From contig JBAZYG010000001.1 of the NCBI GenBank assembly GCA_041659445.1, forward strand, positions 381,624 to 445,623: a stretch of 64,000 nt of DNA, written 5' to 3'. The notes beneath the pieces were generated by a model. It worked only from the letters and a program-made list of their open reading frames with translations. It was not told the DNA's origin and made no database searches. The position numbers and the translations under genes are program-made. The DNA comes from Candidatus Pacearchaeota archaeon. Lineage in GTDB: Archaea; Nanobdellota; Nanobdellia; Pacearchaeales; GW2011-AR1. Below are positions 1,382 to 50,506 of this stretch, in pieces (positions within the stretch are counted from its first letter, which is position 1; the number at the start of each line of letters is the position of its first letter).

Positions 1382-2578
1382 ATGGAAATACATCCTCATC
1401 CAAAGATATTATTAAAATTACATAGAAGAAGAGCTGATATAGAATTAAGTCCAGAAGAATATCAAAGAGGAAAGGTTTGGTCAAAAGATAAACAACAACT
1501 TCTTATGGATACAATTCTTAAAAAAATGCACATTCCTCCAATTTATTTTCGAGTTTTAGAAAATGGATATTATGAATGTGTTGATGGGCAACAAAGATGC
1601 ACGGCAGTATTTGATTTTTTTGATGATAAGTTTCCCCTCTCAAAAAAATATTCTCCTGAATTTGCGGGGAAATTTTTTAAAGAATTACCAACAGAAATAC
1701 AAGATAGATTTTATGATTACGAAATAATGGTTTTTGAAATAGTTAATGCTTCAGATGACGAAACAAAAGAGATGTTTAAAAGATTACAAAAAGGAATGCC
1801 CTTAACTGCTGGAGAAAAACTTAAAGCAGAAACAGGAAATATTAGAAGTTTTATTTTAGAACTAACAAAAACAAAGTTTTTCTCTGATGCAATTAATGTA
1901 AGAGACTATAGAGGTGCTTATTATCAAATGTGTTCTCAAATTTTGGCTCTTGAGATGTTAGGAATGAAAGATGTTAAATTCAAGATTTTAGAAGATATGC
2001 ACACAGAAAATAAAAATTTAGATTTAAATGGAAAAGCACCGACACAAGTAAAAAAAGTAATAAACTTTTTATCTCGTGCTTTTGAAACTAAAACTCCCGA
2101 ATTACATACGAGGGCGGGAATAGTTTCATTGTATCTTTTAATTTCTACTTTGATGAAAGAATATTCATTAAAAGATAAGGAAGATTTAATTAAAAATTTT
2201 GTTATTTATTTTCAGGACAAATTAAGAGAAACAGAAGAAAAAGAAAATAATCCAGAATTATTAAAATTTTTGAATGCAATAAGTCATTCATCTGATGGTG
2301 CAAATTCAATAAAAACCAGACACGAAATTTTAATGAATTATTTTTTATTATTTGCTAAAGATTTAGAACCATTAGATACAAATAGAGGTTTTACAGAAAT
2401 TGAGAGGATAGCAATTTATAGAAAAAACGAGGGTATTTGTCAGGAATGCAAACAAAAAGTAGAATATAATAATTTTCACGCAGACCACATAATTCCTCAT
2501 TCAAGAGGTGGAAAAACAACTCTTGAAAATGGGCAAGTTTTATGTAATAAATGTAATTTATCTAAAGGTGCTAATTAA
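1382..2578 (+). CDS. DUF262 (ParB/Srx-like, DGQQR motif) N-terminal domain fused to a C-terminal HNH endonuclease; GmrSD/BrxU-like candidate type IV restriction-type nuclease
   Basis: N-terminal YECVDGQQRCTAVFDFF (DGQQR signature of DUF262); C-terminal HADHIIPHSRGGKTTLENGQVLCNKCNLSKG (HNH His-Me finger with paired Cys/His). Confidence 0.7.
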   Translation: MEIHPHPKILLKLHRRRADIELSPEEYQRGKVWSKDKQQLLMDTILKKMHIPPIYFRVLENGYYECVDGQQRCTAVFDFFDDKFPLSKKYSPEFAGKFFKELPTEIQDRFYDYEIMVFEIVNASDDETKEMFKRLQKGMPLTAGEKLKAETGNIRSFILELTKTKFFSDAINVRDYRGAYYQMCSQILALEMLGMKDVKFKILEDMHTENKNLDLNGKAPTQVKKVINFLSRAFETKTPELHTRAGIVSLYLLISTLMKEYSLKDKEDLIKNFVIYFQDKLRETEEKENNPELLKFLNAISHSSDGANSIKTRHEILMNYFLLFAKDLEPLDTNRGFTEIERIAIYRKNEGICQECKQKVEYNNFHADHIIPHSRGGKTTLENGQVLCNKCNLSKGAN

Positions 2579-7974: not shown

Positions 7975-8307
7975 ATGGAAATAATTAAGCAAGTGGAAAT
8001 TTGTGATTGGAAGGGATTAAACTATGAAATTGCACTTAGAGCTCAAGGCGGTGGAAGAAGTTTTGTTTTTGCAAACATACTTGATGGTTTCTTTTTATTA
8101 AATAAAAGATTTCATATGGGCCAAGTAGAAGCATTTGGAATAGCAAAAGACATTGAAGAAGCAGATAAAAGATTATATAACAAAGCAAAAGAAATTGCAC
8201 AAATCCATAGGAAAGAATATGAAACTGCAAAAAATGAAGAAAATTATATTATTGAAATTGTTGATTTAACAAAAAGAGGAAAATTAGAAAAAGAATTAGA
8301 AGAATAA
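7975..8307 (+). CDS. hypothetical small protein (110 aa), paralog of the next gene
   Basis: Complete ORF; C-terminal segment ...DKRLYNKAKEIAQIH...IVDLTKRGKLEKELEE parallels ...DKKAYENAKGEMFEKL...LIDLTERGKQSKLE in 8315..8677. Confidence 0.4.
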   Translation: MEIIKQVEICDWKGLNYEIALRAQGGGRSFVFANILDGFFLLNKRFHMGQVEAFGIAKDIEEADKRLYNKAKEIAQIHRKEYETAKNEENYIIEIVDLTKRGKLEKELEE

Positions 8308-8314: not shown

Positions 8315-8677
8315 ATGCCAAAAACAAAACCTTTAATTTACAAATGCAAATTATTCAAAGACCCTGAAAAAGAACTTCCTGTTTACATTTTGAATATTGA
8401 TTTTACAGAATTTTCTGATTATAATAAAGTTTCTATATTTTATGATACAAGACCTATTATAAGAAATTCGAATGAAACTTTTGTAGATGTTGGAGATAAT
8501 TTAGATGACATAGATAAAAAAGCATATGAAAATGCAAAAGGAGAAATGTTTGAAAAATTAAAAGAAAAATTTATGAAATCTAAGTATAATAAACCAAAAG
8601 GAAAAGTAAAACTTGTTTTAATTGATCTCACTGAAAGAGGAAAACAAAGTAAATTAGAAATTGGAGTTAAAGATTAA
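8315..8677 (+). CDS. hypothetical small protein (120 aa), paralog of the previous gene
   Basis: See previous; tandem duplicate. Confidence 0.4.
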   Translation: MPKTKPLIYKCKLFKDPEKELPVYILNIDFTEFSDYNKVSIFYDTRPIIRNSNETFVDVGDNLDDIDKKAYENAKGEMFEKLKEKFMKSKYNKPKGKVKLVLIDLTERGKQSKLEIGVKD

Positions 8678-9160: not shown

Positions 9161-9418
9161 ATGCCTAAAAATTTAGAAGCAATAAAAGATTTTGGAAAAA
9201 TAGGATTAAAAACATTAAGAAATGGATTGGTTGTTTTTGGAGCAACTTATTTTATTAAAGAAGGATTTGACTATAACTCAAATTTGGATTCTTTAAAAGA
9301 AAGCATTAATTATGCACAAGACACAGGGATAGTAACTTCTATTTTAACAGTAAGTTATTATTTTGTAAAAGGCACTATAAAAGCAATTGATAATTTTTCA
9401 TCAATATCAGAACATTAA
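9161..9418 (+). CDS. hypothetical small protein (85 aa)
   Basis: Complete ORF, co-directional and tightly spaced with the previous gene. Confidence 0.35.
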   Translation: MPKNLEAIKDFGKIGLKTLRNGLVVFGATYFIKEGFDYNSNLDSLKESINYAQDTGIVTSILTVSYYFVKGTIKAIDNFSSISEH

Positions 9419-12276
9419 TCCAATTTCAAACTGATAATTTTACTGACTCCGTCGTGCATTGAAACTCCGAAGATGTTTGTTGCATTTGAAATAATTTCAT
9501 CGTTGTGACTTATAACAATGTATTGTCCTTTTTGCATGTATTTCTTAAGTAAATTTCCAAGTCTTTCTGAATTTCTTTTATCAAGAGCAGCATCAATTTC
9601 ATCCAAAATGTAAAAACAATATGGTTTTAATTCTTGAATTGCAAAAATTAAAGACAGAGCAACTAAAGTTTGTTCTCCTCCTGAAAGAGATTTGACATCG
9701 AAATATTTTCCGTGTCCTGTCTTGACTGTGATATTTACACCTCCTTCAAAAGGATCTTTTTTGTTTTCCAAATCCAACCAAACTTCACCTTTTGTACTTA
9801 ATTCTGCAAAATTCCTAGAGAAAATTGAATTTAATTCTTCTAAAGTTTTAAGAAATGTTTTTTTCTTCTTGACATCAATTTCATGAATTATCTTAAGAAT
9901 TTTTTCTTTTTCATTAACAATAATTTCTGATTTTTCATTTATTTTATCATATTCTTCTTTTACAGAATCATAAACTTCCAAAGACCTTAAATTTACAGAA
10001 CCAATTCTCATCAAAGTATCTTGAATATTTTTTAATTTTGATGAAAGATTCTCTTTATTTCCATGAACAATTTCAACTTCTTTAAATTCAGAAAGTTCTT
10101 CTTGGATGTTCTCTAATTCTGCTGTGACTTTTGCTCTTTCAATTTTGAAATTATTGCAATCCTGTTCTAATCCATAAATTTCATTTTTTTTATTAGAAAT
10201 TTCTGACTCAATTTCTCGAATCTTATTTTGAGATTCATCTCTTTGAGAAATTAATTTTTGGAATTTTTTTGTTAATTCTTCTTCTGAATCTCTTTTTTGC
10301 TTAAGAGTTTTTTCTTTTTCTGAAATTGATTTTTGAATTGATGATAATTCTTCATTTACTTCTTTTTCATCACGAACAACTTGTTTCAAAGAAACTTCAA
10401 TTCTCTCAATTTCCCTTTGCTTAAAAGATATCTCTGAATCTACATTTTCTTTATTTCTCAAGGATATTTCTTCTATTTCAATTCTTAAATTTTCATATTT
10501 TTGATCAACATTTGAATTTTGATCAAAATCATTTTCTAAATTCTTTCTTTTTTTAATCAAATTCTCAACTTCTTGCTTTAATGGATTTATTTTTTCCTCT
10601 AAGATTTTTATTTGATTTTTTTTATCCTCTATTGAAATTAATTTAGTCAAATCAGATTTTCTTTTACTTAATTCAGAATTAATTAATTCAATATCTTTTT
10701 TTAGTAAATCTATTTTCTTATAAATTTCAGAAATTTCTTTTTCTGAATTTTTTATTTCAGATTCTAGTTGAGATATTTTTGGATTTATGTCTGATTTTAT
10801 TGAAGAAACATGTTCATGTGTAATTTTACTTCTGCAAAGAGGACAAACTTCTAATTTAGAAACTTTTTCCAAAACTTTTTTTTGCTTGTCAATTTCATAT
10901 TCGTTTGTATGAATTATTAATTCTAATTCCTGTTCTCTTATTTTTAATGATTCAATTGCCTGACTTTTTTCTTGAAATGAAACTTGAAGAGATTCTAAAT
11001 TTTCTGGTTTTGATTTTTTATCAAATAATTCTAAAGAAAGTCCATTTATTTGTTTGAGCAAAAAGTTAGATTCATTTTCATAATTTAAAAGCATATTTTT
11101 TTTATCTTCAATACGTTCAGAAACTGATTTTAATTCAGATTTTAACATATAGAATTTTTTTCTTTTTTCTTCTAATTCTTCAAGCTCTTTCTTTTTTTGT
11201 TTTAATTCTTTTTCTTTTTTATCTAATGCAGGAGATTCTATTTTTAACTCTCCCACAAGTTCTTCTAATTCTGTCAAGGAATGTTCAAATTCTCTTTTTT
11301 GGTTTGATAGATTACTTATTTTTCTTTCAGAATTCTCTAATTTAACCCTTAAACCTGTTAGTTCTGCTCTTAAATTTGCTATTTCATTGTTTAATTTTTC
11401 TTGTTCTATTCCAGTAGATTCTTTTATTGTAATATTTATTTCATTGATTTTAGAATTTAAACTATCTACATTTGTCTTTAATGTCAAATTTAATTTTTTT
11501 ATTTTTTCAATTTCTTTGTTTTTCTTTTCTATTTCTGAATTTATTCTTTCTTTTTCTTTATTTTTTTCAATAAGATTTTCATTAAGAATGCTTGCTTTCA
11601 AGACTTCGACTTCTTTCTCGAGTTTTTTGAATTTGAGTGCTTCTTGCCTTTCTTTTTCCAGATTATTTAAATAAGCAGTTCTTTCTCTTAATATTGCAGA
11701 AATTTCTTTTAATTTCTCTTCTGTTTTTTCCAATTCTTTTATTGATTTTTCTTTTCGAGATTCATAAATAGAAATTCCAGCGACTTCTTCAATTATCTTT
11801 CTCCTTTCTTCTGATTGCATTCTCACAAAATTTTGAATTTCGCCCTGTAAAATAATATTAAATCCATATGGATCAATTCCTGCTTGAGCAAGCAAAGACA
11901 AAACTTCTTGTCGGGTTTTTGTTTTGTCATTTATTTTATAAATACTTTGTCCGTTTCTTCTTACAATTCTTTTTATTAAAATTTCCTGTTCTTCCATTCC
12001 AAAAGAATTATCTGAATTATCTATTATTACTTCGACTGAAGCTTCTTTAGATGGAGATGCAATTTTTGTTCCTAAAAAAATTAAATTTTTTGCTTTTGCT
12101 GCTCTCATGGATTTTATACTTAATCTTCCGAGGACAAAACATAAAGCATCAGAAATATTTGATTTTCCAGAACCATTTGGTCCGAGGATAACATTTATCC
12201 CTGGAGTAAAAGGGAGTTCTGTTTTTTTTGGGAAACTTTTAAACCCATACATCACCAATTTTTTTATGTAAGGCAT
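9415..12276 (-). CDS. SMC-superfamily chromosome-associated ATPase (SMC-type head domains, long coiled coil, CxxC hook-like motif at the midpoint instead of an obvious hinge)
   Basis: N-terminal FKSF...ILGPNGSGKSNISDALCFVLG (Walker A); QGEI...RRKIIEEVAGI; C-terminal LSGGEQTLVALSLIFAIQELKPYCFYILDEIDAALD (SMC signature plus Walker B) and ISHN (H-loop); about 650 aa of heptad-rich K/E/L sequence; CPLC at about residue 477 of 953. Confidence 0.8.
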   Translation of the reverse strand: MPYIKKLVMYGFKSFPKKTELPFTPGINVILGPNGSGKSNISDALCFVLGRLSIKSMRAAKAKNLIFLGTKIASPSKEASVEVIIDNSDNSFGMEEQEILIKRIVRRNGQSIYKINDKTKTRQEVLSLLAQAGIDPYGFNIILQGEIQNFVRMQSEERRKIIEEVAGISIYESRKEKSIKELEKTEEKLKEISAILRERTAYLNNLEKERQEALKFKKLEKEVEVLKASILNENLIEKNKEKERINSEIEKKNKEIEKIKKLNLTLKTNVDSLNSKINEINITIKESTGIEQEKLNNEIANLRAELTGLRVKLENSERKISNLSNQKREFEHSLTELEELVGELKIESPALDKKEKELKQKKKELEELEEKRKKFYMLKSELKSVSERIEDKKNMLLNYENESNFLLKQINGLSLELFDKKSKPENLESLQVSFQEKSQAIESLKIREQELELIIHTNEYEIDKQKKVLEKVSKLEVCPLCRSKITHEHVSSIKSDINPKISQLESEIKNSEKEISEIYKKIDLLKKDIELINSELSKRKSDLTKLISIEDKKNQIKILEEKINPLKQEVENLIKKRKNLENDFDQNSNVDQKYENLRIEIEEISLRNKENVDSEISFKQREIERIEVSLKQVVRDEKEVNEELSSIQKSISEKEKTLKQKRDSEEELTKKFQKLISQRDESQNKIREIESEISNKKNEIYGLEQDCNNFKIERAKVTAELENIQEELSEFKEVEIVHGNKENLSSKLKNIQDTLMRIGSVNLRSLEVYDSVKEEYDKINEKSEIIVNEKEKILKIIHEIDVKKKKTFLKTLEELNSIFSRNFAELSTKGEVWLDLENKKDPFEGGVNITVKTGHGKYFDVKSLSGGEQTLVALSLIFAIQELKPYCFYILDEIDAALDKRNSERLGNLLKKYMQKGQYIVISHNDEIISNATNIFGVSMHDGVSKIISLKLD

Positions 12277-20138: not shown

Positions 20139-21806
20139 TTAATTTTCGTCACAATTTGTTTCATACATTATTCCATCTGAAAAAGCCATCCAACAATTTC
20201 CAACTGAATAATTTCCTGTCAAACCAATATTATTTTGAGAAATTAAATTTCCTGAGAAAGAAATATCTCCGTTAACATCTAATTCACTTTGAGGAGTTGT
20301 TGTTCCAATTCCAACTTTTCCACCCATAATTGCCATTGTGTTTGCTTGACTTACAATAGTTCCTGATTGATCATTTAACCCTATTCCTACTGAATTACTT
20401 CCTGAAACTTCTATTCCTTTACCCATTGCGACAGAGTAAGGTCCTGATGCAATTGTATTTCTTCCAAAAGATGTTGAAGCTTCTCCAGATGAAACAGTCA
20501 CCAAACCCATTGCTGTTGAACCATAACCTGAAGAAATAGTTCCAGAGCCCATTGCTGTTGAAGCAGTTTCAGATGCAGTTGTAGAATATCCCATTGCTGT
20601 TGAATAATCTCCTAAAGCTTTTGTGTAACCCCCAGTTGACATTGAACTATAACCTGAAGATTCAGTGTATTCTCCCATTGCTGTTGAATAATATTGCGAA
20701 GATTCTGAACCATAACCTGTTGCTGTTGAATAATATCCTGATGAAATTGTTGCACCACCCATTGCAATTGCACCAATTTCAGAGGCTAATGTGCTTGGTC
20801 CTATTGCTGTTGAATATAAATTTGAAGCATTTGCATAATAACCCATAGACATTGAATGCTTATTTGGATTAATTAAAAGAGTATTTTCACCAACATAAAA
20901 ATTTCCTGTAAATTTCCCATCACCGATGACAGTCAATGCATTTTGGGGATTGTTTGTTTTTATTCCAACATTTCCATTATTATTTACAACAAATGCCTTT
21001 GAAGAATTTGCTCCTGGACTAAAATACAAACTTTCATCTCCTGCAGATGTAAAATCTATTTTAAAGATTTCTTTATTTCCAGAACGAATATTAAAACTAT
21101 CTGCTAAAATAAATGCAAGATATCCACCATTGTAATCACCCAAAATAAAATCATTTGTAGAATGAATACTTCCATTAACATCTAAATTATATTGTGGGTT
21201 GCTTGTTCCAATACCAACATTTCCCCCCATAATTGCCATTGTATTTGCTTGAGAAACATTCAAATTATTTTGATCATTCAATGCGATAGCAAAACTATAA
21301 TCTCCTCCTGCAATAATTTCTCTACCCATTGCTGTTGACAAAAACCCAGAAGCTGTTGTTGCAAAACCAGTCGCTGTTGAAGAAGCTCCTGAAGATTTTG
21401 TTAAATCACCTAATGCTATTGAAGAATCTCCTGAAGCATTTGCATAATGTCCTAATGCTATTGAAGAATCTCCTGAAGAGAATGCATGATTCCCAACAGC
21501 TACTGAAGAAGGCCCTAAAGCTGTTGATGAATATCCTAAAGCAACAGAATATAATCCCGAAGCTGTTGAGGTTCCTGATGAAATTGAATAGGTATTTGTA
21601 TTAACAAAAAAATCAGTTCCTCCAACACTGAAATTGTAATCTCCTAAAACAACATTATGATTTGAGCCAACGTAAGGAACATAACTTGAATTATAATTTG
21701 ATGAAATTAATTTATTATTTGTCTTTGCTAAAGAAAAAGAAGATAAACATAAAATCAAGATTAAAACAAAAACCATTCCAAAAAAATATTTATTTTTACA
21801 TTTCAT
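20139..21806 (-). CDS. secreted adhesin-like protein with Hep_Hag/YadA-head-type repeats and tail-fibre-like NVGIGT motifs
   Basis: Signal peptide MKCKNKYFFGMVFVLILILCLSSFSLA; repeated SSIALGHYANASGDSSIALG / SVALGYSSTALGPSSVAVG units (N/S-S-[IV]-A-[LV]-G periodicity); twice-repeated MAIMGG[NK]VGIGT..PQ..LDVNG motif. Confidence 0.6.
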   Translation of the reverse strand: MKCKNKYFFGMVFVLILILCLSSFSLAKTNNKLISSNYNSSYVPYVGSNHNVVLGDYNFSVGGTDFFVNTNTYSISSGTSTASGLYSVALGYSSTALGPSSVAVGNHAFSSGDSSIALGHYANASGDSSIALGDLTKSSGASSTATGFATTASGFLSTAMGREIIAGGDYSFAIALNDQNNLNVSQANTMAIMGGNVGIGTSNPQYNLDVNGSIHSTNDFILGDYNGGYLAFILADSFNIRSGNKEIFKIDFTSAGDESLYFSPGANSSKAFVVNNNGNVGIKTNNPQNALTVIGDGKFTGNFYVGENTLLINPNKHSMSMGYYANASNLYSTAIGPSTLASEIGAIAMGGATISSGYYSTATGYGSESSQYYSTAMGEYTESSGYSSMSTGGYTKALGDYSTAMGYSTTASETASTAMGSGTISSGYGSTAMGLVTVSSGEASTSFGRNTIASGPYSVAMGKGIEVSGSNSVGIGLNDQSGTIVSQANTMAIMGGKVGIGTTTPQSELDVNGDISFSGNLISQNNIGLTGNYSVGNCWMAFSDGIMYETNCDEN

Positions 21807-31168: not shown

Positions 31169-31753
31169 CTAAAGAATTTGCCCATTAAAATTAGAATTAA
31201 AATCTTTAACAATTTGATTATCTTCATCAAAAAAATCAACTATAATAATTGCTTTTTCATAAGCACGATAATACCTTTTATCAGTAACTTTCACATAATT
31301 TACTTTGGATGCAACAAACCTCACTTGCCGATCATTATCGTCTTCAAAAAGTCCGCCTTCTTTTAGGGAATCAATTATGTTCTTTGTATAGTTATCTACA
31401 TCCCTATCTTTGTGGGTATTAACTAAAAGATATTTTATTAAAATTTGTATTGGTTTGTTTTTTATTTCTTCGCAGATTGATTTTGTATTTTTTGATTTTT
31501 TTAATTTATCAACAATTATTTTTCTCATTCTCTTTCCTGCTTTTGTTTGAAAACTTGCAGGATATGCATCTGGCATTAACCACCAAAGGTGTTTCCCCTT
31601 TGGACAAGAATCAAAAGAATCTTTATGTATTATTGAAATTCCTCTTGAAGAAACTCCTTTTTTGAGGATATTCATCTTAACTTTTTCACTTCTTCTTTTT
31701 GGAATTTTTACATTGGGAAAATTACTCATAACTAATTCTCTCATAGTTACCAT
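31169..31753 (-). CDS. RusA-like Holliday-junction resolvase (phage-type endodeoxyribonuclease)
   Basis: THKDRDVDNYTKNIIDSLKEGGLFEDDNDRQV parallels the RusA core [31 protein letters not shown] (D-x-D-N...K...D...DD.QV); start is 1 nt after the upstream HNH gene stop. Confidence 0.55.
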   Translation of the reverse strand: MVTMRELVMSNFPNVKIPKRRSEKVKMNILKKGVSSRGISIIHKDSFDSCPKGKHLWWLMPDAYPASFQTKAGKRMRKIIVDKLKKSKNTKSICEEIKNKPIQILIKYLLVNTHKDRDVDNYTKNIIDSLKEGGLFEDDNDRQVRFVASKVNYVKVTDKRYYRAYEKAIIIVDFFDEDNQIVKDFNSNFNGQIL

Positions 31754-31754
31754 T

Positions 31755-32441
31755 TTATCTAATTTTCATGTGTGTTTTTTTGTGACAAACCCCACAGAGA
31801 ACGACTAAATTATTCACTTGATTATTTGAAGAATCTTCATCTTTATGATGAATGTGAAGACCTTCTGTTTTCCCACAAACAGCACATTCATTATTAAATT
31901 TGCCAAAGACCATTTCCTTTTCATCATTTGTTAAAAATTTTCTTTTAGCCTTAACTTTCCCATAAATCTTTTTCTCAGCTTCTTCTCTTATTTTTCTTTT
32001 TTCTTGTCTTTCCAAAATTTTATTTGATTCTATTTTTATAAGTTCATCACTTACAAGTTCATTTATTGCTTTTTCAATATTATAATCTTTATTTATTACC
32101 TTCTTTATCACATTTTCTTTATTAAAATAGGAAATTCTTTGCTTAGATCTTTTTAGCTTCAAATATTCTTTTGCCTTAACAACTAATTGTTCTGGAGCAA
32201 ATTTATCTTCTTGATGCCAATCTAAATGAGGCTCTTTTGATTCATTAGAAAGTTTGATGTAATTAATTATCTCTTTAATTGCTTTCATTTCTTTTTTACT
32301 TCTTTGGTTTCTTTCTTTTATTTCTATTTCTTTTAAATAACAAGATTTGCATTTACCAGAAAACATATAACTATACTCTTCAAACTTTGTATAACATACT
32401 GAACAATTATAAAACCCCATTAAATAAAAAAGAAAGAACAA
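31755..32441 (-). CDS. zinc-ribbon plus HNH endonuclease protein
   Basis: N-terminal CSVCYTKF...CKSCY (Cys4 ribbon); C-terminal CAVCGKTEGLHIHHKDEDSSNNQVNNLVVLCGVCHKKTH (HNH with a Cys4 zinc site); K/E-rich middle. Confidence 0.6.
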   Translation of the reverse strand: MFFLFYLMGFYNCSVCYTKFEEYSYMFSGKCKSCYLKEIEIKERNQRSKKEMKAIKEIINYIKLSNESKEPHLDWHQEDKFAPEQLVVKAKEYLKLKRSKQRISYFNKENVIKKVINKDYNIEKAINELVSDELIKIESNKILERQEKRKIREEAEKKIYGKVKAKRKFLTNDEKEMVFGKFNNECAVCGKTEGLHIHHKDEDSSNNQVNNLVVLCGVCHKKTHMKIR

Positions 32442-36422: not shown

Positions 36423-36731
36423 ATGAACAACATTGATGAATTTTTGGAAGATGGTTTTAAAATAAGAGAATATGAAAACAATTTATCAAAAATTATATCT
36501 GAAATAAAAAGAGAATGTGAAGTTCAAAAAGAAGAAGATTTTGATTACAAAGAGCATATAGAAATATCTGTTAACGTCTTAAAAACATTTCTAGAAGGAT
36601 ATAAAAAATTAATAGAAAAATATCCTGATTCAAAATTTATTAAAAATAGAAAAAAATATTTATATTTTTTTGCAAAGAAAAACTTACCTAAAGAAGTATA
36701 TAAAGAGGTTTATGAAAATGAACAACATTGA
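36423..36731 (+). CDS. small protein, copy 1 of a tandemly triplicated family (starts MNNIDE, ends YENEQH)
   Basis: 102 aa; paralogous to the next two genes along its length. Confidence 0.5.
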   Translation: MNNIDEFLEDGFKIREYENNLSKIISEIKRECEVQKEEDFDYKEHIEISVNVLKTFLEGYKKLIEKYPDSKFIKNRKKYLYFFAKKNLPKEVYKEVYENEQH

Positions 36732-37014
36732 TGAAATCTTAGAGGATGGTAGAAAAATTTATTTATTGATGGAAAATTCATTATATTTTGCTGAATTAAT
36801 AATGAATGAAAGGAAATATATTGAAATTCTTCCTAAGGAAAAAGAAGGTTATAGAATGACCTTAAAAAATAACTGGAAAAGATTTCAGGAATTTTCAGAA
36901 AAATACCCTAATTCTGAATTTGTTAAGGAAACAGTTGAAAGAATTCTTAATTCAGCGAAAGAAGATTTACCAGAAGAAGTATACAAGGAGATTTATGAAA
37001 ATGAACAACATTGA
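36718..37014 (+). CDS. small protein, copy 2 of the triplicated family; start trimmed to MNNIDE
   Basis: Track ORF 36670..37014 begins in the upstream copy; the nucleotide string tatgaaaatgaacaacattgatgaa encodes both YENEQH* of copy 1 and (MK)MNNIDE of copy 2 in shifted frames. Confidence 0.5.
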   Translation: MNNIDEILEDGRKIYLLMENSLYFAELIMNERKYIEILPKEKEGYRMTLKNNWKRFQEFSEKYPNSEFVKETVERILNSAKEDLPEEVYKEIYENEQH

Positions 37015-37291
37015 TGAAATCTTGAAAGATGGAATTAGTGCTCATTATATTGGAAGGGATTCTTTAGAAGATATTTCAAAAATAAGAGAATACTCAAAAT
37101 TTCCAGATAAATTATGGAAAATCGGAGATTACAAAAAAAGATTAGTTAGTTATTGGAAAGGTTTGCAAGATTTAGCTAAAAAATACCCAGATTCTGAAGT
37201 TATTAAAGAACAAACTGAAATAATTCTTAACTCGGCAAAAGAATATCTACCCGAAAATATATATAAAGAAATTTATGAATCAGAAAAATAA
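37001..37291 (+). CDS. small protein, copy 3 of the triplicated family; start trimmed to MNNIDE
   Basis: Same overlap architecture with copy 2; C-terminus diverged (YESEK). Confidence 0.5.
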   Translation: MNNIDEILKDGISAHYIGRDSLEDISKIREYSKFPDKLWKIGDYKKRLVSYWKGLQDLAKKYPDSEVIKEQTEIILNSAKEYLPENIYKEIYESEK

Positions 37292-37920: not shown

Positions 37921-37960
37921 TTCTTATAATTTTTATTTTAGATAAGTTTTTAAGTTCATA

Positions 37961-37980
37961 TTTATTTGAAAATTTATAAT
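37961..37980 (+). promoter_or_regulatory. putative archaeal TATA/BRE-like element upstream of tRNA-Leu
   Basis: tttatttgaaaatttataat lies about 12-30 nt upstream of the tRNA 5' end; weak because AT-rich sequence is everywhere. Confidence 0.25.
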
Positions 37981-37991
37981 TTGCAATTTAT

Positions 37992-38075
37992 GCGGGGGTG
38001 CCGGAGTGGTCAAACGGGCTGGACTTAAGATCCAGTAGCTTAGTGCTTGCGCAGGTCCGAATCCTGTCCCTCGCA
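37992..38075 (+). tRNA. tRNA-Leu (anticodon TAA), type II
   Basis: Acceptor GCGGGGG/CCCTCGC, anticodon stem CTGGA/TCCAG with loop CTTAAGA, long variable arm TAGCTTAGTGCTTGC, T-arm GCAGG-TCCGAAT-CCTGT, discriminator A. Confidence 0.8.
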
Positions 38076-38123
38076 TTTTGATAGGATGAGAACCAAGCCT
38101 AAAAAAATATTTAGATTTTTGCC

Positions 38124-38150
38124 CGCAGGTCCGAATCCTGTCCCTCGCAT
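38124..38150 (+). repeat. 27-nt perfect direct repeat of the tRNA-Leu 3' end (T-arm plus acceptor 3' strand)
   Basis: cgcaggtccgaatcctgtccctcgcat occurs at 38050..38076 (inside the tRNA) and again at 38124..38150, 47 bp downstream. Confidence 0.75.
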
Positions 38151-38151
38151 A

Positions 38152-38223
38152 GCCATTACGCATAGGCTTCGCGAGACACTGAATGAAAAAGCCATTACCC
38201 ATAGGCTTCGCGAGACACTGAAT
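38152..38223 (+). repeat. tandem repeat, 2 x 33 nt separated by gaaaaa (one mismatch)
   Basis: gccattacGcataggcttcgcgagacactgaat / gccattacCcataggcttcgcgagacactgaat; contains the palindromic core tcgcga; followed by two copies of aattgcctctg at about 38237 and 38295. Confidence 0.7.
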
Positions 38224-38362
38224 AACGATTTCTTTAAATTGCCTCTGATTGAAATCGCAAATAATACTTAAACTCTTAAACAAAGTTGTTCAATTGCCTC
38301 TGGCAACAACAAAAAAAATTAATCACATAAATATTTTTAAATCCAAATGCAACTAAATTTTT

Positions 38363-41369: not shown

Positions 41370-42131
41370 TTATTTATTTTTCAGAATTTCTTGAATCTTG
41401 TTTTTAAAATCTTCAATATTCATTTTTTTAATGTCGCTCTCCCATAACCTAATAACTTTAAATCCTTTTTCTTGTAATTCATTTGTCCTCACATTATCTA
41501 TTTCTCTACCTAAAGGATATTTGTGCCAATAATTTCCATCAACTTCTATTATTAAATTTAAATTTGAAATTAAAATATCACATTGATAACCATGCTCAAT
41601 TTCTTTTATATATTTATGAGTAATAAATTCTATATTTAATTGCTTTAAAAAATTTTGAATTTTAATTTCTGGTTTAGAATCTTTTAAAGGAAAAATTTGT
41701 TTAATCCTTTGATTTTTAATTTTTAAGATTGTCTCTTTTGAATGATGTTTTCCAAACATAGGATGTTTTTCTCCAGAAATTTCAGGAATTTTCTTTCCTT
41801 TATTCCATACATTTTCTCCTTCAAATCTTTTCTTTTGAGAAATACTCATTTTTTTTCTTACTTCTGAACTTAATAAAGTTTTCATTAAAGATATTTTTTG
41901 TTTTTCTATTGTTTCCTTAGAAGGATGCTTTCCAGTCATCCAAGAAGGTTTACCTGTTTTTTTACCTTTATTGCTGGGAACACTACCTTTCTTAAAAATA
42001 CCTTTAAATCCACTCGGAAAATATTTTTTATATTCTTCCCCTTTTAATCCTTTATTCCAAGGTATACTGCCTTTTTTGAATTCTGTTTTTGAAGAAGAAC
42101 GTTCTCCTTTCTTGAATTTAGTATCTATCAT
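41370..42131 (-). CDS. homing-endonuclease-like protein with N-terminal NUMOD3-type DNA-binding repeats and a C-terminal Vsr/DUF559-like PD-(D/E)xK nuclease domain
   Basis: Repeats FKKGSIPWNKGLKG, FKKGSVPSNKGKK, GKHPSKETIEKQKIS, GKHHSKETILKIKNQ (the G-K-H-x-S-x-E-T-x-x-K-I motif of NUMOD3); C-terminal YQCDILISNLNLIIEVDGNYWHKYP...VIRLWESDI resembles the DUF559/Vsr endonuclease core. Confidence 0.6.
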   Translation of the reverse strand: MIDTKFKKGERSSSKTEFKKGSIPWNKGLKGEEYKKYFPSGFKGIFKKGSVPSNKGKKTGKPSWMTGKHPSKETIEKQKISLMKTLLSSEVRKKMSISQKKRFEGENVWNKGKKIPEISGEKHPMFGKHHSKETILKIKNQRIKQIFPLKDSKPEIKIQNFLKQLNIEFITHKYIKEIEHGYQCDILISNLNLIIEVDGNYWHKYPLGREIDNVRTNELQEKGFKVIRLWESDIKKMNIEDFKNKIQEILKNK

Positions 42132-43373: not shown

Positions 43374-43838
43374 TTAACTTATTTTAATTTTTTCCAAAAA
43401 AATATTATAAAAAGAAACCAATGCATTTGATTCTTCTGTGAAAGGAAAAATTACACAAGTTCCTGCATCACACCGTCTATTTTCCCAAGTTCCTTCATAA
43501 AATTTAGTATCTTCCACTCCAAACTTCCAAATTAGATTGTAATTTAAGATAACTTCAGAGCCACCATTTTTTATTGCTTGCTTATTATATTTTTTTCTAA
43601 AATTAAAGCTTTTTTTATCATTTAATGCTCCAAAAAATTCTGCTTCTCCAAATTTATCGATTAATGTTCCTTTTAATTTTTTTCCATTTTGCTCTATAAT
43701 TTTCCCAAAGAAAATGCTACTATCTCTTCCAAGTTCATAATTCCAAAATCCATAAAAGTCGGGTTTTTCATTATTCATATTTTGAAAAACAAAATACAAT
43801 TTAAAAATATAATTATACTTCAAAATATACTTCTTCAC
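43374..43838 (-). CDS. hypothetical protein (154 aa)
   Basis: Complete ORF; no motif recognised. Confidence 0.35.
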   Translation of the reverse strand: MKKYILKYNYIFKLYFVFQNMNNEKPDFYGFWNYELGRDSSIFFGKIIEQNGKKLKGTLIDKFGEAEFFGALNDKKSFNFRKKYNKQAIKNGGSEVILNYNLIWKFGVEDTKFYEGTWENRRCDAGTCVIFPFTEESNALVSFYNIFLEKIKIS

Positions 43839-43871
43839 AATATTAATAAACTTATTTTTTGTATTTATTAT

Positions 43872-44408
43872 ATGAAAAAAAGAGGAAAGGGCGGTCAGTT
43901 TTATCTTGTTGCTGCAATGATTGTTATTGCAGTTATTATTGGAATTTCTTCAATTTCAAATTACTCAAACAAATCAAAAGCAGACAAAGAAATGAAAAAT
44001 TTTGAACAAGAATTAAACACTGAAGTTGAAAAAAATTTAGAATACATAAGTTTGAATTCTTTATCAGACAGTTCAACAAAAAATCTTTGGATAAATCTTA
44101 CAGATAACTATATTACAAAATTAGGAAAAAACAAAGAATCAATTTTTATTTTTGGAACAAAATCACAAATAACTGTCAAAGGATACAAACTGAATAATTC
44201 AAATGATTTGCAAATTAACGTCGGAAGTGGTGTTGAAAGTTTAGCAAGTTCAGAAGGAGAATTTGAAAGGGATTTTAATCCGAGTGTTGAAAACGTGACA
44301 ATTATAAAAGAAAATATTGAATATGTTTTTGATTTAAAGCAAGGACAAAATTTTTATTATCTGATTTCCAAAGAATATAATTCAGAGAGAATAATTATAA
44401 GAAACTAA
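43872..44408 (+). CDS. pilin-like protein with an archaeal class III signal peptide (start trimmed to MKKRGKGGQ)
   Basis: The track ORF starts upstream, but MKKRGKGGQFYLVAAMIVIAVIIGISS is a textbook prepilin-type N-terminus (basic residues, G, then a hydrophobic helix). Confidence 0.55.
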   Translation: MKKRGKGGQFYLVAAMIVIAVIIGISSISNYSNKSKADKEMKNFEQELNTEVEKNLEYISLNSLSDSSTKNLWINLTDNYITKLGKNKESIFIFGTKSQITVKGYKLNNSNDLQINVGSGVESLASSEGEFERDFNPSVENVTIIKENIEYVFDLKQGQNFYYLISKEYNSERIIIRN

Positions 44409-44409
44409 C

Positions 44410-44928
44410 ATGAAAAATAAAAAAGGTGTGAGCGTGATGATTGGTTATGTTTTGCTAGTTGCATTAGTAGTAGTCATGGCTGGAATAGTTTATGTTTATT
44501 TGAGAACTTATATTCCAAAAGACTTGCCTGCATGCCCTGAAGAAACTTCATTATTCATAAAAGAAAAATCTTGCTCAAACGGAATTTTAAATATAACTAT
44601 AAAAAATAATGGCAAATTCAGCGTCGGAGGTTATTATATTTATGCTTCAAATGTTTCAAGTGCAGAAATTGCAACAATAGATTTGTCAAAGCAATTAAAT
44701 TCTGGAATTGATAATCAATATACTTATTTCAATTCTGTAATTTTTAATATAAGCACTAACAATACTCTTGATCCTGGAAATGAAATTATAAATAGTTTTG
44801 ATTTAAATCAATCAATAAATTTCATTGAAATAATTCCTGCGAGGTTTGAATCACAAGGAAAAAATGTCAAATTAGTTAGTTGTGGAAATTCAAGAATAAA
44901 AGAAATTGTAACTTGCTTGATTGTATAA
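44410..44928 (+). CDS. pilin-like protein (class III signal peptide)
   Basis: MKNKKGVSVMIGYVLLVALVVVMAGIVYVYL. Confidence 0.55.
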   Translation: MKNKKGVSVMIGYVLLVALVVVMAGIVYVYLRTYIPKDLPACPEETSLFIKEKSCSNGILNITIKNNGKFSVGGYYIYASNVSSAEIATIDLSKQLNSGIDNQYTYFNSVIFNISTNNTLDPGNEIINSFDLNQSINFIEIIPARFESQGKNVKLVSCGNSRIKEIVTCLIV

Positions 44929-44959
44929 TATTTAAAAATATAGAAGATTTAGAATAAAA

Positions 44960-45418
44960 ATGAACAAAAGAGGTTTGTCATCAGTTATTGCAACAATGCT
45001 TTTAATTACAATAACAATTGTCATTGCATTAATTGTATTTTTATGGTTTAGAGGAATTCAAGAAGAAGCAATTACAAAATTCGACGGAGTTAATGTAAAA
45101 GTAATCTGCGATGAAGTTCAATTTGATGCAGATTATTCTAATGGAGCAATGTATATTGTTAATACAGGAGATGTTCCAATTTATAAAATGGAAATAAAAG
45201 AAGTTGGTGAAGGATATTATGAAACACAAACTCTTGAAAATAATTGGCCAGAATTAGGATTGACACAAGGTGGAGCTTTTCAAGGAAATTATGCTCCTTT
45301 AGGTGAATCTTATTCTATAGAAAGAATTGTTTTAATTCCTGTTTTAATTGGCCACACTGAACAAGGAGATACAATCTATACATGCGATGAAAAAAATGGT
45401 TATGAAATAATTTTATAA
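44960..45418 (+). CDS. pilin-like protein (class III signal peptide)
   Basis: MNKRGLSSVIATMLLITITIVIALIVFLWF. Confidence 0.6.
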   Translation: MNKRGLSSVIATMLLITITIVIALIVFLWFRGIQEEAITKFDGVNVKVICDEVQFDADYSNGAMYIVNTGDVPIYKMEIKEVGEGYYETQTLENNWPELGLTQGGAFQGNYAPLGESYSIERIVLIPVLIGHTEQGDTIYTCDEKNGYEIIL

Positions 45419-45419
45419 A

Positions 45420-45914
45420 ATGAAAAATAAAAAGGCATTATCTCAAGTTGTTTCAATAATGATCATTCTTCTTTTAGTTTTTGCTGTTGGTGGAATTGTT
45501 TTTGTTTTTGTAAAAAATTTTGCAAATAAAAACCTCAATAAAACAAGTTCTTGTTACAACATTTACGAAAAAATTACATTAAATAATGATTTTACTTGTT
45601 ATAATTCAACTGGGCAATATGTTCAATTTTCAATTTCTAGAAAAGAAATAGAATTAGACTCTTTAATAATTTCAATCACATTCGAGGAAAATTCAAAAAC
45701 TTATTCTTTGACAAATCTTTCACAAAATGTTAGTGGATTAAGTTCTTCTCTAAATGGTGAATTTGCTGTCAATCTTCCTGGAGAAAATAGTGGAAAACCA
45801 TATTATGCAACAAACATTACTGAGCAACCTTTAACAATTGAAATTGCTCCAATAATTAACAATCATAATTGCAACAAGATTGACGAAATTTTAGATATTC
45901 CTATTTGTTTTTGA
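45420..45914 (+). CDS. pilin-like protein (class III signal peptide)
   Basis: MKNKKALSQVVSIMIILLLVFAVGGIVFVFV. Confidence 0.55.
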   Translation: MKNKKALSQVVSIMIILLLVFAVGGIVFVFVKNFANKNLNKTSSCYNIYEKITLNNDFTCYNSTGQYVQFSISRKEIELDSLIISITFEENSKTYSLTNLSQNVSGLSSSLNGEFAVNLPGENSGKPYYATNITEQPLTIEIAPIINNHNCNKIDEILDIPICF

Positions 45915-45961
45915 ATATTAAACATTAACTATTTAAATAAAAAATAATTCTTTATTAGGAG

Positions 45962-46486
45962 ATGGTGATAACAAAAAAAGCACAAGTTTGGATTGAAACA
46001 GTAACTTATATTTTAATTGCATTTGCATTAATTGGTTTAATTTTAGCATTTGCAAGACCAAAAATTCAGGAATACCAAGACAAATCAATTCTAGAGCAGT
46101 CATCAAAAATGATGAAAGTCTTAGACGAAACAATAAGAGAAGTTGGTAATGAAGCTGTTGGAAATAAAAGAAATATTGATTTAAGAGTTCGAAAAGGAAC
46201 TTTGGAAATTAATCCGCAAAATAATACTCTGACTTTTATTATGGATAGTAAATATATTTATAGCGAATTGGGAAAAACAATATCTGAAGAAAATTTATTT
46301 GTTACAACAACTGCTAAAGGAAAGTTTAATGAAGTTAAAATGTATTTAAATTACACTGGAGAATATGACTTACTTCAAAATAATTTAACAGAAACAAAAA
46401 TACTTACAACATCGTCAACAGATTATGATTTATATATTTCAAACAAAGGAGGTTCACCAATACAAATAGATATTGAAATAGATTAA
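45962..46486 (+). CDS. pilus/archaellum accessory protein with an N-terminal TM anchor (FlaF/FlaG-like position)
   Basis: VWIETVTYILIAFALIGLILAFA then a soluble beta-rich domain; sits immediately upstream of the ATPase. Confidence 0.4.
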   Translation: MVITKKAQVWIETVTYILIAFALIGLILAFARPKIQEYQDKSILEQSSKMMKVLDETIREVGNEAVGNKRNIDLRVRKGTLEINPQNNTLTFIMDSKYIYSELGKTISEENLFVTTTAKGKFNEVKMYLNYTGEYDLLQNNLTETKILTTSSTDYDLYISNKGGSPIQIDIEID

Positions 46487-46487
46487 A

Positions 46488-48047
46488 ATGCCAACAAAAA
46501 GAATAGGAATTCAAGATTATCCTCAAGTTGCTATTGATTTTTCACCAAGAATTCCAAAATTAAAAAAACAACGAGACAAATCTAAAATAAATGTAAGATA
46601 TTGTTTAATTTCTCCTTTCACATATGTCCATATTTATTGGAATCCAGAAGATTATGAAGTTGCATATGATATAGAAGAACCAATTTTAGATAAAAATGAA
46701 ACAAGATACCTTGAGCAAATTATTTCTGCAATGAAAGATATGATTGATTTTAATGAAATTATTCGAAAAAGCAAAGATTCATTGTTTGAATATATTGATA
46801 AAAGATTTAAAATATTGGCAATTGAATTAGGTTTAGATATTTCTTATGAAAGTTATAAAAAATTATTTTATTATTTATGCAGAGATTTTGTTGGATTTAA
46901 TGAAGTAGAACCTTTATTGAGAGATTATTTTGTCGAGGATATAGAATGTAATGGAGCAAACACTCCTATTTATATTGTTCACAGAGTTTTTAGAAATTTA
47001 AGAACAAACATTAAATTTGAAAGTAATTCAAGATTGGAAAGTTTTGTAGAAAAACTTGCACAAAGATGTGGAAAGTATATTTCATATGCAAAACCAATTT
47101 TAGATGCAAGTTTGCCAGATGGTTCAAGAGTTAATGCAACTTATACAAAAGATATTACAAGTAAAGGACCAACTTTTACAATTAGAAAATTCACTAAAAA
47201 ACCATGGACACCTCCTCAATTAGTTGCATTTAATACTTTAAGTCCTGAAATGCTTGCTTATTTATGGTTACTTGTCGAATATAAAATGAACGTTCTTATT
47301 ATTGGGGGAACGGCCTCAGGTAAAACCACTTTGTTAAATGCTATTGCGTTTTTTATTCCACCAGAAGCAAGAGTTGTAAGTATTGAAGATACTCGTGAAT
47401 TAAATTTACCTAGGGAAAACTGGTTGCCAAGTGTTTCGCGTTCTGCTATTGGAATTGGAAACATGGGTGAAATTGATTTGTATGATTTACTTAAAAGTTC
47501 ATTCAGACAAAATCCAGATTATGTAATTGTTGGTGAAGTTAGAGGTAAAGAAGCAAGTGTTTTATTTCAGGGAATGGCTTCAGGACACTCATCTATTAGT
47601 ACAATCCACGCTGATTCTGTTGAAACAGTTATAAAAAGATTAGAAACTCCTCCTATTGAACTTTCTCCAACTCTGTTAAATGTTCTAGACAGTGTTTGTA
47701 TTATGACTCATGCAATTGTAAATAAACAAGAAACAAGAAAATTAAGGGAAATTGTTGAAATTGTAAATGTAACTCCAGACGGAATAGCGTTAACAAATAC
47801 CCCGTTTAAATGGAATTCAAGAGAAGATGTATTTTATTTTAAAAAAGAAAGTAAATTATTTGAAAAAATTTCCAAAAGGTATGGTATAACAACAGAAGAA
47901 TTAGTTAAAGAATTTCAATTAAGAACAATTTTATTATATAAAATGTATGAAAATAAAATATTTGATTTTGACGATGTTCAAACAATCATAAATGAATATT
48001 ATAAAAGACCTGACGAAGTTTTAAAAAAATTTCAAGTAATTAAATAA
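46488..48047 (+). CDS. type IV pilus/archaellum-family secretion ATPase (FlaI/PilB/TadA/VirB11 superfamily)
   Basis: Walker A VLIIGGTASGKTTLLNAIAFFIP, SIEDTRELNL (Asp box), Walker B DYVIVGEVRGKEA, His box SSISTIHADS. Confidence 0.8.
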   Translation: MPTKRIGIQDYPQVAIDFSPRIPKLKKQRDKSKINVRYCLISPFTYVHIYWNPEDYEVAYDIEEPILDKNETRYLEQIISAMKDMIDFNEIIRKSKDSLFEYIDKRFKILAIELGLDISYESYKKLFYYLCRDFVGFNEVEPLLRDYFVEDIECNGANTPIYIVHRVFRNLRTNIKFESNSRLESFVEKLAQRCGKYISYAKPILDASLPDGSRVNATYTKDITSKGPTFTIRKFTKKPWTPPQLVAFNTLSPEMLAYLWLLVEYKMNVLIIGGTASGKTTLLNAIAFFIPPEARVVSIEDTRELNLPRENWLPSVSRSAIGIGNMGEIDLYDLLKSSFRQNPDYVIVGEVRGKEASVLFQGMASGHSSISTIHADSVETVIKRLETPPIELSPTLLNVLDSVCIMTHAIVNKQETRKLREIVEIVNVTPDGIALTNTPFKWNSREDVFYFKKESKLFEKISKRYGITTEELVKEFQLRTILLYKMYENKIFDFDDVQTIINEYYKRPDEVLKKFQVIK

Positions 48048-48103
48048 AATGAAAAAACTAAAAATAAATTTGGGTAAACTTCATTTTTCAAAAAACCAAT
48101 AAA

Positions 48104-48268
48104 ATGAGAAAAGAGGAAATACTTTACTTAGGACAATTATTTGAAATTCTTGAGGATAAAATAAAAAGATTAAAAGAATCATACGAAAATAAAGAAGTTC
48201 TAAAATTTAATTCTTTAAAAAAGGAAATAATTCAAATCCATGAAAAAATATCTGAAACAATAAAATGA
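48104..48268 (+). CDS. small coiled-coil protein (54 aa), below ORF-track cutoff
   Basis: Hand translation MRKEEILYLGQLFEILEDKIKRLKESYENKEVLKFNSLKKEIIQIHEKISETIK*; its stop overlaps the ATG of the next gene (atgA). Confidence 0.25.
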   Translation: MRKEEILYLGQLFEILEDKIKRLKESYENKEVLKFNSLKKEIIQIHEKISETIK

Positions 48269-49623: not shown

Positions 49624-49624
49624 A

Positions 49625-50482
49625 ATGGAACTAAAAAAAATACATTTAATCTCTGCATTAGTAGCGTTTGCATTAATTGCAATTGGATATTTTTTAGCAA
49701 GTAAAAAACTTTTTCCTTTAATTGCTGGAATTGGTGCATTAATTGGATTTGCTCCGTTTTTAATTACATTAATGAAAGAAATTAAAACTGCTTCTGAAAA
49801 AGAAGAAATGTTTTTGGAATTTGCTAGAAATCTCGTCGAGAGTGTTAAAACAGGAACTCCAATAAGTAAAAGTATTGTAAACATGAGCAATAAAAATTAT
49901 GGTGCCTTAACAGAGCATATTCAAAAACTAGCAAATCAAATTTCGTTAGGTATTCCCTTAAATAAAGCCTTGGATGTTTTTTCAAAAGATGTAAAAAATA
50001 AATCTATTTCACGTTCATTAACTTTAATTGGACAAGCAGAAAGAGCTGGAGGAGAAATTGGAGAAATACTTGAATCTGTTGCAGGAGCTGTTAGCATTTC
50101 AGATAAATTAAAAAAAGAAAGAAAAGCTTCAATCTCTACATTAGTTTCTCAAGGATATATTATTTTCTTGGTTTTTATTGTAATAATTTTAGTTATGCAA
50201 TATCAAATAATTCCAATGGTTTCTGGAATAGCAAATGTCCAAGATTTGGGGTTAGCGGGTTTTGGAGTTTCAAAAGTTAGTAATTATCAACAAGTTGAGC
50301 AAAGACAAATTTCAAATTCATTTTTGTATTTAATTTTAACACAAGGCTTTTGCGCAGGACTTGTTATTGGTAAAATTTCAGAAGGAAGCATTAAAGCAGG
50401 AATTAAACATTCTTTTTCCTTAATGTTTTTGTCTTTCTTAATATCTGCAATAGCAAATGCTTTGTTATCTAAAGGAGGATAA
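49625..50482 (+). CDS. pilus assembly platform membrane protein, FlaJ/TadC-like (second half)
   Basis: N-terminal TM pair, cytoplasmic helical domain (LANQISLGIPLNKALD... resembles the T2SS-F domain), C-terminal TM block; 1 nt after the previous stop. Confidence 0.5.
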   Translation: MELKKIHLISALVAFALIAIGYFLASKKLFPLIAGIGALIGFAPFLITLMKEIKTASEKEEMFLEFARNLVESVKTGTPISKSIVNMSNKNYGALTEHIQKLANQISLGIPLNKALDVFSKDVKNKSISRSLTLIGQAERAGGEIGEILESVAGAVSISDKLKKERKASISTLVSQGYIIFLVFIVIILVMQYQIIPMVSGIANVQDLGLAGFGVSKVSNYQQVEQRQISNSFLYLILTQGFCAGLVIGKISEGSIKAGIKHSFSLMFLSFLISAIANALLSKGG

Positions 50483-50506
50483 TTTATTTTTAAATAAAAA
50501 AATAAA

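Follow-up and report, generated by a model that had tools for sequence, protein, structure and literature searches.

A Pacearchaeota SMC protein in which a candidate Rad50-type zinc hook replaces the hinge

Results

The gene at 9415..12276 and the layout of its product

A gene for an SMC-type ATPase lies on the minus strand at 9415..12276 of a 64,000-nucleotide stretch of contig JBAZYG010000001.1 from a Candidatus Pacearchaeota archaeon; this whole stretch, with a base composition of about 27% G+C, is referred to below as the window. In the list of open reading frames (ORFs) the gene encodes a protein of 953 residues followed by a stop codon, and it was taken as a complete hook-type SMC gene on the basis of this ORF together with the matches to PF02463, TIGR02169 and the structure 5XEI described below. 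The close homologues of the protein are labelled Pacearchaeota or Nanoarchaeota (DPANN archaea). In the initial annotation of this DNA, SMC-like head domains were proposed to be combined here with a Rad50-like CxxC hook at the midpoint of the coiled coil, and the analysis reported here followed up that proposal.

All the features of the protein are encoded on the minus strand. The N-terminal half of the ABC ATPase head (residues 1-168; 11773..12276) was assigned by alignment with the head of Pyrococcus Smc and by the beta/alpha fold in the AlphaFold2 model, and includes the Walker A motif GPNGSGKS (residues 32-39; nucleotides 12160-12183) and the Q-loop LQGEI (residues 143-147). The ascending arm of the coiled coil (residues 169-474; 10855..11772) follows, as judged from the AlphaFold2 helix, the match to positions 1-479 of TIGR02169 and the MAFFT alignment, and leads to the apex loop LEVCPLCRSKIT (residues 475-486; 10819..10854), the proposed zinc hook, for which the translation, the conservation, PF04423 and the Foldseek comparison were considered. 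Within this loop is located the tetrapeptide CPLC (residues 478-481; nucleotides 10834-10845). The descending arm (residues 487-768; 9973..10818), supported by the AlphaFold2 helices and collinear with the C-terminal arm of hinge-bearing SMCs, is followed by the C-terminal half of the head (residues 769-953 and the stop codon; 9415..9972), which aligns with Pyrococcus Smc from residue 769 and carries the signature motif LSGGE (residues 864-868; nucleotides 9673-9687), the Walker B/D-loop motif ILDEIDAALD (residues 890-899; nucleotides 9580-9609) and the H-loop ISHN (residues 922-925). The motifs quoted in the initial annotation are all present. The protein contains five cysteines, two of which form the CPLC. 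C478 and C481 mark the halfway point of the sequence (953/2 = 476.5) and occupy the apex in the AlphaFold2 model, in agreement with the proposed midpoint position.

Heads and arms of SMC type

In Pfam, the window protein was matched by SMC_N (PF02463) across residues 3-945 with E=1.3e-45. In NCBIfam, SMC_prok_A (TIGR02169) gave 551.5 bits against a cutoff of 729 and SMC_prok_B (TIGR02168) gave 528.3 bits against a cutoff of 567, both models matching in two stretches with the hinge skipped, and the scores stay under the cutoffs because the hinge domain is absent. The top match in PDB was 5XEI, the head and coiled coil of Pyrococcus Smc (E=6.2e-106), while the Rad50 heads in PDB reached only E values of about 1e-12. 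The head aligns residue for residue with Pyrococcus Smc and has the complete set of SMC-type ATPase motifs, and both arms are collinear with the arms of hinge-bearing SMCs in the MAFFT alignment and along the TIGR02169 model. The heads and the arms are of SMC ancestry, and the description of the heads as SMC-like rather than Rad50-like agrees with the scores from Pfam, NCBIfam and PDB alike. Hook-type proteins are called "chromosome segregation protein SMC" in the databases, which are silent on the missing hinge, and fall below the TIGRFAM equivalog cutoffs.

Absence of the hinge and the predicted fold

The SMC_hinge domain (PF06470) was not found by Pfam in the window protein. A custom hidden Markov model (HMM) of the hinge, built from the hinge regions of 44 canonical-length SMC representatives, gave zero matches in any hook-type protein, the window protein included, and the same HMM scored mostly about 120-330 bits on hinge-bearing SMCs, with a few divergent ones at 38-76 bits. 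The nearest hinge-bearing relative (P0148), used as the control, has its Pfam hinge at residues 503-619 with 114.7 bits. In the multiple alignment by MAFFT, about 200-230 residues of the hinge-bearing SMCs correspond to about 45 residues around the CPxC, and the replaced block runs from the hinge-proximal coil and the hinge fold through to the GG-rich hinge motif.

The fold was predicted by AlphaFold2 from an alignment of 120 sequences, with a mean predicted local distance difference test score (pLDDT) of 76. In the model a long helix at residues 169-474, interrupted at 345-354 and 417-423, leads to a 12-residue loop with the CPLC and to a return helix from residue 487, the apex being modelled with pLDDT 86-93; the descending arm is made of helices at 487-585, 590-605 and 611-730. 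When the apex alone was modelled, the pLDDT was 95 and the predicted template modelling (TM) score 0.77. No globular fold was present at the apex in the full-length or the apex-only model. The claim that a globular hinge is missing thus stood in the Pfam scan, the hinge HMM and the AlphaFold2 model, and residues 430-560, where a folded hinge would have spoken against the initial annotation, form a helix-loop-helix at the pLDDT given above. Low confidence marks two breaks, 345-354 about 128 residues before the hook and 606-610 about 127 residues after it, and this mirrored placement suggests a paired discontinuity of the coiled coil in the modelled arm.

Similarity of the apex to the zinc hook of Rad50

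When the 120-residue middle segment was compared with Pfam, Rad50_zn_hook (PF04423) was the best match (E=8e-5 with 22.8 bits, the gathering score being 24.3), and the apexes of two orthologues exceeded this score with 25.4 and 26.6 bits. Among 41 diverse apex segments, 31 were matched by PF04423 at E<=0.01 (best 1.3e-7), and no other family matched more than three of the 41. Searches of PDB with the single apex sequence or with a narrow profile gave no significant match (1L8D at E=0.11), and significance was reached only with the broader profile of 41 segments sampled over the whole diversity of hook-type proteins. With this profile the Rad50 hook of P. furiosus was aligned over about 90 residues (1L8D, E=5.5e-7; 6ZFF, E=2.6e-6) and the hook of human RAD50 was matched at E=0.0075 (5GOX), and in the profile alignment the pattern CPxCxxx[IL]TxEH of the hook-type apexes stands in register with CPVCGRELTDEH of P. 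furiosus Rad50. In the Foldseek comparison of the apex against 350,542 PDB chains, chains A and B of 1L8D ranked first and second, with a probability of 0.98-1.0 and a TM score of 0.76 (chain B), at weak E values of about 0.05.

At the profile level the apex has significant similarity to the Rad50-type hook, in accord with the resemblance proposed from the motif in the initial annotation, and it may bind zinc. In the Rad50 hook of 1L8D, a site of four cysteines is split between two chains.

Conservation of the CPxC and spread of the hook-type proteins

Close homologues of the window protein numbered 120, with 63-73% identity and lengths of 944-957 residues except for one of 984. In this set the CPxC is present at the matching position in every sequence (120/120); C478, P479, C481 and H489 are invariant and T486 is nearly so. 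An exhaustive search covering 1.84 billion cluster representatives gave about 20 clusters at 50% identity, with members of 946-1023 residues that are 40-65% identical, align end to end and all have CPxC near the midpoint of the arms. In a scan of GTDB with one genome per species, 80 loci were kept as pattern-limited matches, including about 55 archaeal ones that carry the gene; a midpoint CPxC is present in about 50 of these and a hinge in none, and the remaining archaeal loci are truncated or contain insertions of intein size. The initial annotation had named an unconserved CxxC in orthologues as the result that would count against it, and the motif was found to be kept in all 120 homologues, in about 18 distant representatives of the clusters and in about 50 GTDB loci.

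The apex CPxC stays invariant over a sequence divergence of about 40%, in a coiled coil that varies otherwise. In the wider clade the invariant positions are reduced to C, P and C, and that of H489 is occupied also by Y, R or A. Just two fixed ligands per chain fit a four-cysteine site between chains and argue against a self-contained finger.

Phylogeny and synteny

A neighbour-joining tree was made from the head columns only (414 columns, 115 sequences), and a second run was made with added taxa. The hook-type proteins and four short derivatives formed one clade with 96.5% bootstrap (93.5% with the extra taxa), and this clade was nested among hinge-bearing archaeal SMCs. The most similar hinge-bearing sequences are labelled Woesearchaeota, the exact sister relationship being weakly supported (10%).

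The four short derivatives inside the hook clade (P0141, P0144, P0145 and P0147; 779-804 residues, with Pacearchaeota labels) are SMC_N proteins from which about 170 residues of the two arms next to the apex are missing, the CPxC included, and have neither hinge nor hook.

The neighbourhood of the hinge-bearing P0148 is the same as that of the hook-type genes in the window and in two related contigs (L001 and L002), with a gene for RNase HII upstream and a gene for a protein of about 405 residues downstream on the opposite strand. Beyond this latter gene the hook-type contigs further share genes for AP endonuclease 2 and a DnaG-type Toprim protein. The nesting in the SMC tree, the shared synteny and the collinear arms altogether point to an SMC orthologue with an exchanged dimerisation module. 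On these sequence comparisons, the window gene is with good probability the SMC orthologue of its lineage after a hinge-to-hook swap, and neither a Rad50 nor a member of the archaea-specific SMC-related proteins (ASRPs).

Search for partners and for a second SMC

The genes for Rad50 and Mre11 are normally adjacent in archaea. Pfam scans, which took in most of the window ORFs of at least 110 residues, gave no ScpA, ScpB, Mre11, Rad50 or second SMC among the ORFs scanned, and a six-frame search of the whole window with an ScpA HMM gave no match; the statement that no Mre11, ScpA or ScpB is adjacent was borne out to this extent. A genuine archaeal ScpA was obtained from beside the canonical smc gene at L008, and ScpA HMMs, built from 108 and then from 218 ScpA sequences, were applied to 1.5 Mb of loci. 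ScpA matches were found solely beside hinge-type smc genes (L008 with 274 bits and L089 with 188 bits), while none was detected within 10 kb of the about 55 hook-type genes by these HMMs with working positive controls. Nearby hinge-type loci of Woesearchaeota are also without an adjacent scpA, so that the lost linkage is not specific to the hook-type genes. In searches of the large databases for ScpA, no Pacearchaeota protein was present in the best 120 of 1390 matches, among which Hydrothermarchaeota and Micrarchaeota dominate. Archaeal Smc complexes have been suggested to be binary, composed of Smc and ScpA and without ScpB (PMC7055376).

Among the genes called on three related contigs there was no member of the Metallophos or Mre11 families, and no Mre11-like ORF was found flanking the about 55 loci in a crude motif screen made without a positive control. 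A second SMC-type head was likewise not detected by a phmmer screen of the flanks within 10 kb. Among the 80 GTDB loci kept, no assembly had both a hook-type and a hinge-type gene, and hinge-type genes of other taxa were kept in the same scan at comparable scores. One apparent duplicate within a single metagenome-assembled genome (L019 and L020) is 100% identical and was attributed to assembly redundancy.

Related variants

One SMC of Iainarchaeum (L087:10001-12835; contig JAGVWE010000005.1) has SMC-type heads with the midpoint sequence CPVCENELTGER and an intein in Walker A. Its heads did not group with the Pacearchaeota hook clade (0% bootstrap) and their nearest neighbours are hinge-bearing, which hints, from this one sequence, at an independent hinge-to-hook swap or at transfer of the cassette. 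If independent, it would show that the exchange of hinge for hook has taken place in nature more than once.

An intein of about 520-550 residues is located in the Walker A loop (GKS|C...HN|SN) of this protein and of the hook-type SMCs P0123, P0130, L037:2395-5139, L045:10001-12751 and L056:5294-8080; for P0123, Pfam confirms an intein splicing domain and a LAGLIDADG homing endonuclease. The window gene is without an intein.

The loci L068-L088, except L076, L081 and L087, encode SMC_N proteins of Spirochaetota (of Omnitrophota in the case of L073) with about 920-1060 residues, which align end to end with the window protein at 26-28% identity. By Pfam, PF06470 was not found in L072:10001-12778, L085:10001-12769 and L073, and CxxC is absent in the four Spirochaetota and Omnitrophota proteins inspected. 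These proteins look like another hinge-reduced class of SMC, distinct from the hook-type. Short-armed SMCs of about 800-960 residues with a normal hinge were also observed (P0155, P0157, P0218, P0219, P0221, P0223, P0225, P0240, P0246, P0247, P0264, P0269 and L089:10001-12469), and are reminiscent of the engineered "mini-Smc"; at L089 a gene for ScpA lies directly downstream of the short-armed smc gene.

Other features of the window

Several nuclease-like ORFs were observed in the window. The product of 1382..2578 (plus strand) is a GmrSD_N domain (DUF262-type) fused to an HNH nuclease and looks like a modification-dependent restriction or defence protein, other HNH and RusA-like ORFs are located at 31169..32441 (minus strand), and an ORF resembling NUMOD3/DUF559 endonucleases at 41370..42131 (minus strand). 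Two pairs of small ORFs on the plus strand have the look of tandem paralogues and gave no Pfam match, one at 7975..8307 and 8315..8677 with C-terminal ...DLT(K/E)RGK... tails and the other at 36670..37014 and 36920..37291 with ...YKEIYE(N/S)E... tails.

A cluster of small proteins resembling archaeal type IV pilins is encoded at 43689..51657 (plus strand), where an ATPase-like protein of the FlaI/PilB type (46488..48047) and a FlaJ/TadC-like membrane protein (48265..50482) were recognised by eye. This cluster is followed at 51706..54361 by archease, as identified by Pfam, and a probable RtcB, as judged by eye. Genes for very large proteins, secreted or at the surface, are located at 20139..21806 and 54713..57244 (minus strand) and at 57391..59808 and 59879..64000 (plus strand); one large surface protein has YadA-head repeats, unusual in an archaeon, and an ORF of at least 1374 residues occupies the last 4 kb of the window and runs off its end. 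The Rfam scan of the window gave four tRNA genes on the plus strand (15362-15442, 15741-15816, 17487-17567 and 37992-38075) and no rRNA gene. The length of three of the tRNA genes (81-84 nucleotides) suggests introns or long variable arms, and the ORF at 37933..38283 (minus strand) is probably spurious because it overlaps a tRNA gene.

Discussion

Proposed architecture and mode of action

Taken together, the protein encoded at 9415..12276 is most probably a condensin-type SMC ATPase of Pacearchaeota-like DPANN archaea, in which the hinge was swapped for a Rad50-type zinc hook. In the ancestor of the clade, a hinge block of about 200-230 residues, consisting of the hinge and flanking coil, would have been replaced by a zinc-hook cassette of about 45 residues, and the SMC heads and the near-full-length arms of about 300 residues each would have been retained through the swap. 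Each protomer is predicted to fold back as an antiparallel coiled coil with the CPxC exposed at the tip, forming a rod that, as estimated from about 300 residues per arm, would be about 45 nm long with the head and the CPxC at opposite ends. Two protomers would then be joined by one Zn2+ held tetrahedrally by four cysteines, leading to a constitutive dimer at the apex, and the SMC heads, cycling between engaged and disengaged states at the expense of ATP, would work on the DNA of the chromosome in the manner of other SMC complexes. Zinc binding, dimerisation at the apex, the role in chromosome organisation and any partnership with a kleisin are what we infer from the features of the protein and its relatives.

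Alternative identities

A functional Rad50, that is, a break-repair ATPase working with Mre11 of which the heads merely look like those of SMC, would account for the apex zinc hook, for the missing hinge and for the lack of a kleisin gene found nearby, but the match of the heads to SMC is stronger by about 90 orders of magnitude than that to Rad50, the heads nest within SMC in the tree, the Rad50 models of NCBIfam, with cutoffs of 700-1087, gave at most 108.6 bits (cutoff of this best model 700), and no Mre11-like ORF was found by Pfam among the window ORFs scanned or by the crude screen, made without a positive control, in the flanks of the about 55 loci. This identity is very improbable and was rejected on the head scores and the phylogeny. 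Membership in the ASRPs (ClsN, Sph1/2 and arcadin-4) deserved attention, since this family is archaeal, SMC-related and hook-bearing (PMC9389158) and its model NF045487 was partially matched with 149.5 bits. That score, however, is half of the cutoff of 300 and covers residues 637-923 only, against 528-551 bits for the SMC models across both halves; the window protein has 953 residues against a model of about 593 positions, the arms and the synteny are those of SMC, and the arcadin-4 model NF053563 reached 56.5 bits against a cutoff of 860. The NCBIfam scores and their coverage led to the rejection of this assignment, which is hardly credible. Of the earlier suggestion that the gene encodes a hinge-less, hook-containing SMC-like protein of the kind found in some archaea, the hook and the missing hinge were upheld, but a separate family of the ClsN/Sph (ASRP) kind was not, since the tree, the synteny and the arms make the protein an SMC orthologue. 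Identity with the published hinge-less SMCs was also rejected, as those are actinobacterial and without CxxC.

Two further explanations accept the SMC ancestry and differ on the role of the protein or of its apex. The gene could be an extra SMC-like paralogue, for repair or defence, with a canonical hinge-bearing SMC encoded elsewhere in the genome. The search for a second SMC reached the 10-kb flanks and the GTDB matches rather than whole genomes, and the short SMC_N proteins of about 780-804 residues without hinge or hook in Pacearchaeota show that the lineage has more than one SMC architecture; nevertheless, the synteny is common to the hinge-bearing SMC of the closest relatives, no hook-bearing assembly had a hinge-type match among the 80 GTDB loci, the 10-kb flanks contained no second SMC head, and the one apparent duplicate is a redundant assembly copy, so that a paralogue is considered unlikely. 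The initial annotation had suggested that the protein substitutes for canonical SMC; the orthology fits this suggestion, and the absence of a second SMC holds for the flanks and the pattern-limited GTDB matches. As to the CPxC, it might instead bind a metal within one chain, serve as a redox switch or disulfide, or be no more than a conserved turn, and dimers would then form by other means or be absent. The position of the motif exactly at the tip of the coiled coil, its invariance in an otherwise variable region, the two invariant ligands per chain and the significant similarity to solved Rad50 hooks across about 90 residues all stand against this possibility, which is judged quite unlikely.

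Comparison with known systems

The SMC orthologue with a hook that we propose was compared with known systems. With canonical Smc-ScpA(B) (5XEI/4I99; TIGR02169) it is alike in the heads, the ATPase motifs, the arms, the gene neighbourhood of its relative and the position in the tree, but canonical SMC has the PF06470 hinge where the window protein has about 45 CPxC-bearing residues, and no kleisin gene was found near the latter. With the hook of Rad50/SbcC (1L8D/6ZFF; PF04423) it has in common an antiparallel coiled coil tipped by CPxC, together with the extended register around this motif, and is different from Rad50 in that the heads and arms are derived from SMC and no Mre11 gene is adjacent.

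The same architecture has been made in the laboratory. B. subtilis grows normally with an engineered Smc in which the hook of Pyrococcus Rad50 replaces the hinge, the function of this Smc still being dependent on the length of the arms (Buermann et al. 2017; PMC5344682). This Smc(Zh) chimera is equal in architecture to the window protein, except that it was built in the laboratory, in a bacterium that has ScpAB. In the opposite direction, yeast Rad50 tolerates replacement of its hook by the hinge of MukB (PMC6969161). With these precedents, a natural hook-bearing SMC is plausible rather than shocking. Among natural proteins, the ASRPs are archaeal SMC relatives with a zinc hook (PMC9389158), which have the apex hook as in the window protein but form a separate, shorter family. 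The hinge-less SMCs from ocean metagenomes have SMC heads and arms without a hinge, like the window protein, but are actinobacterial and explicitly without CXXC (Sussfeld et al. 2025; PMC12153180). In the searchable literature no account of a natural SMC with a hook was found, and a mention in the ABC-ATPase survey of Krishnan et al. (2020) is possible. The present observations indicate that the hook-type SMC is a natural, ancient and widespread DPANN version of the laboratory domain swap.

Implications for SMC function

In many models of how SMC is loaded and how it extrudes loops, the hinge binds DNA, serves as an entry gate and contacts the heads or the kleisin. A swap retained throughout a clade of archaea (about 20 clusters at 50% identity; about 50 GTDB species), and possibly repeated in Iainarchaeota, is a natural test of which functions of the hinge are essential, and prompts the question of whether the hook-type lineages require a kleisin. 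The hook-type SMCs also offer compact material for structural and single-molecule work. It is conceivable, although doubtful at present, that the hook-type protein is the sole long-armed ATPase of the SMC superfamily in these reduced DPANN genomes and works without ScpA and ScpB, joining the folding of the chromosome with a Rad50-like bridging of DNA. If this were true, an SMC of natural cells could do without the hinge, without its functions as a DNA-binding site and gate, and possibly also without the kleisin.

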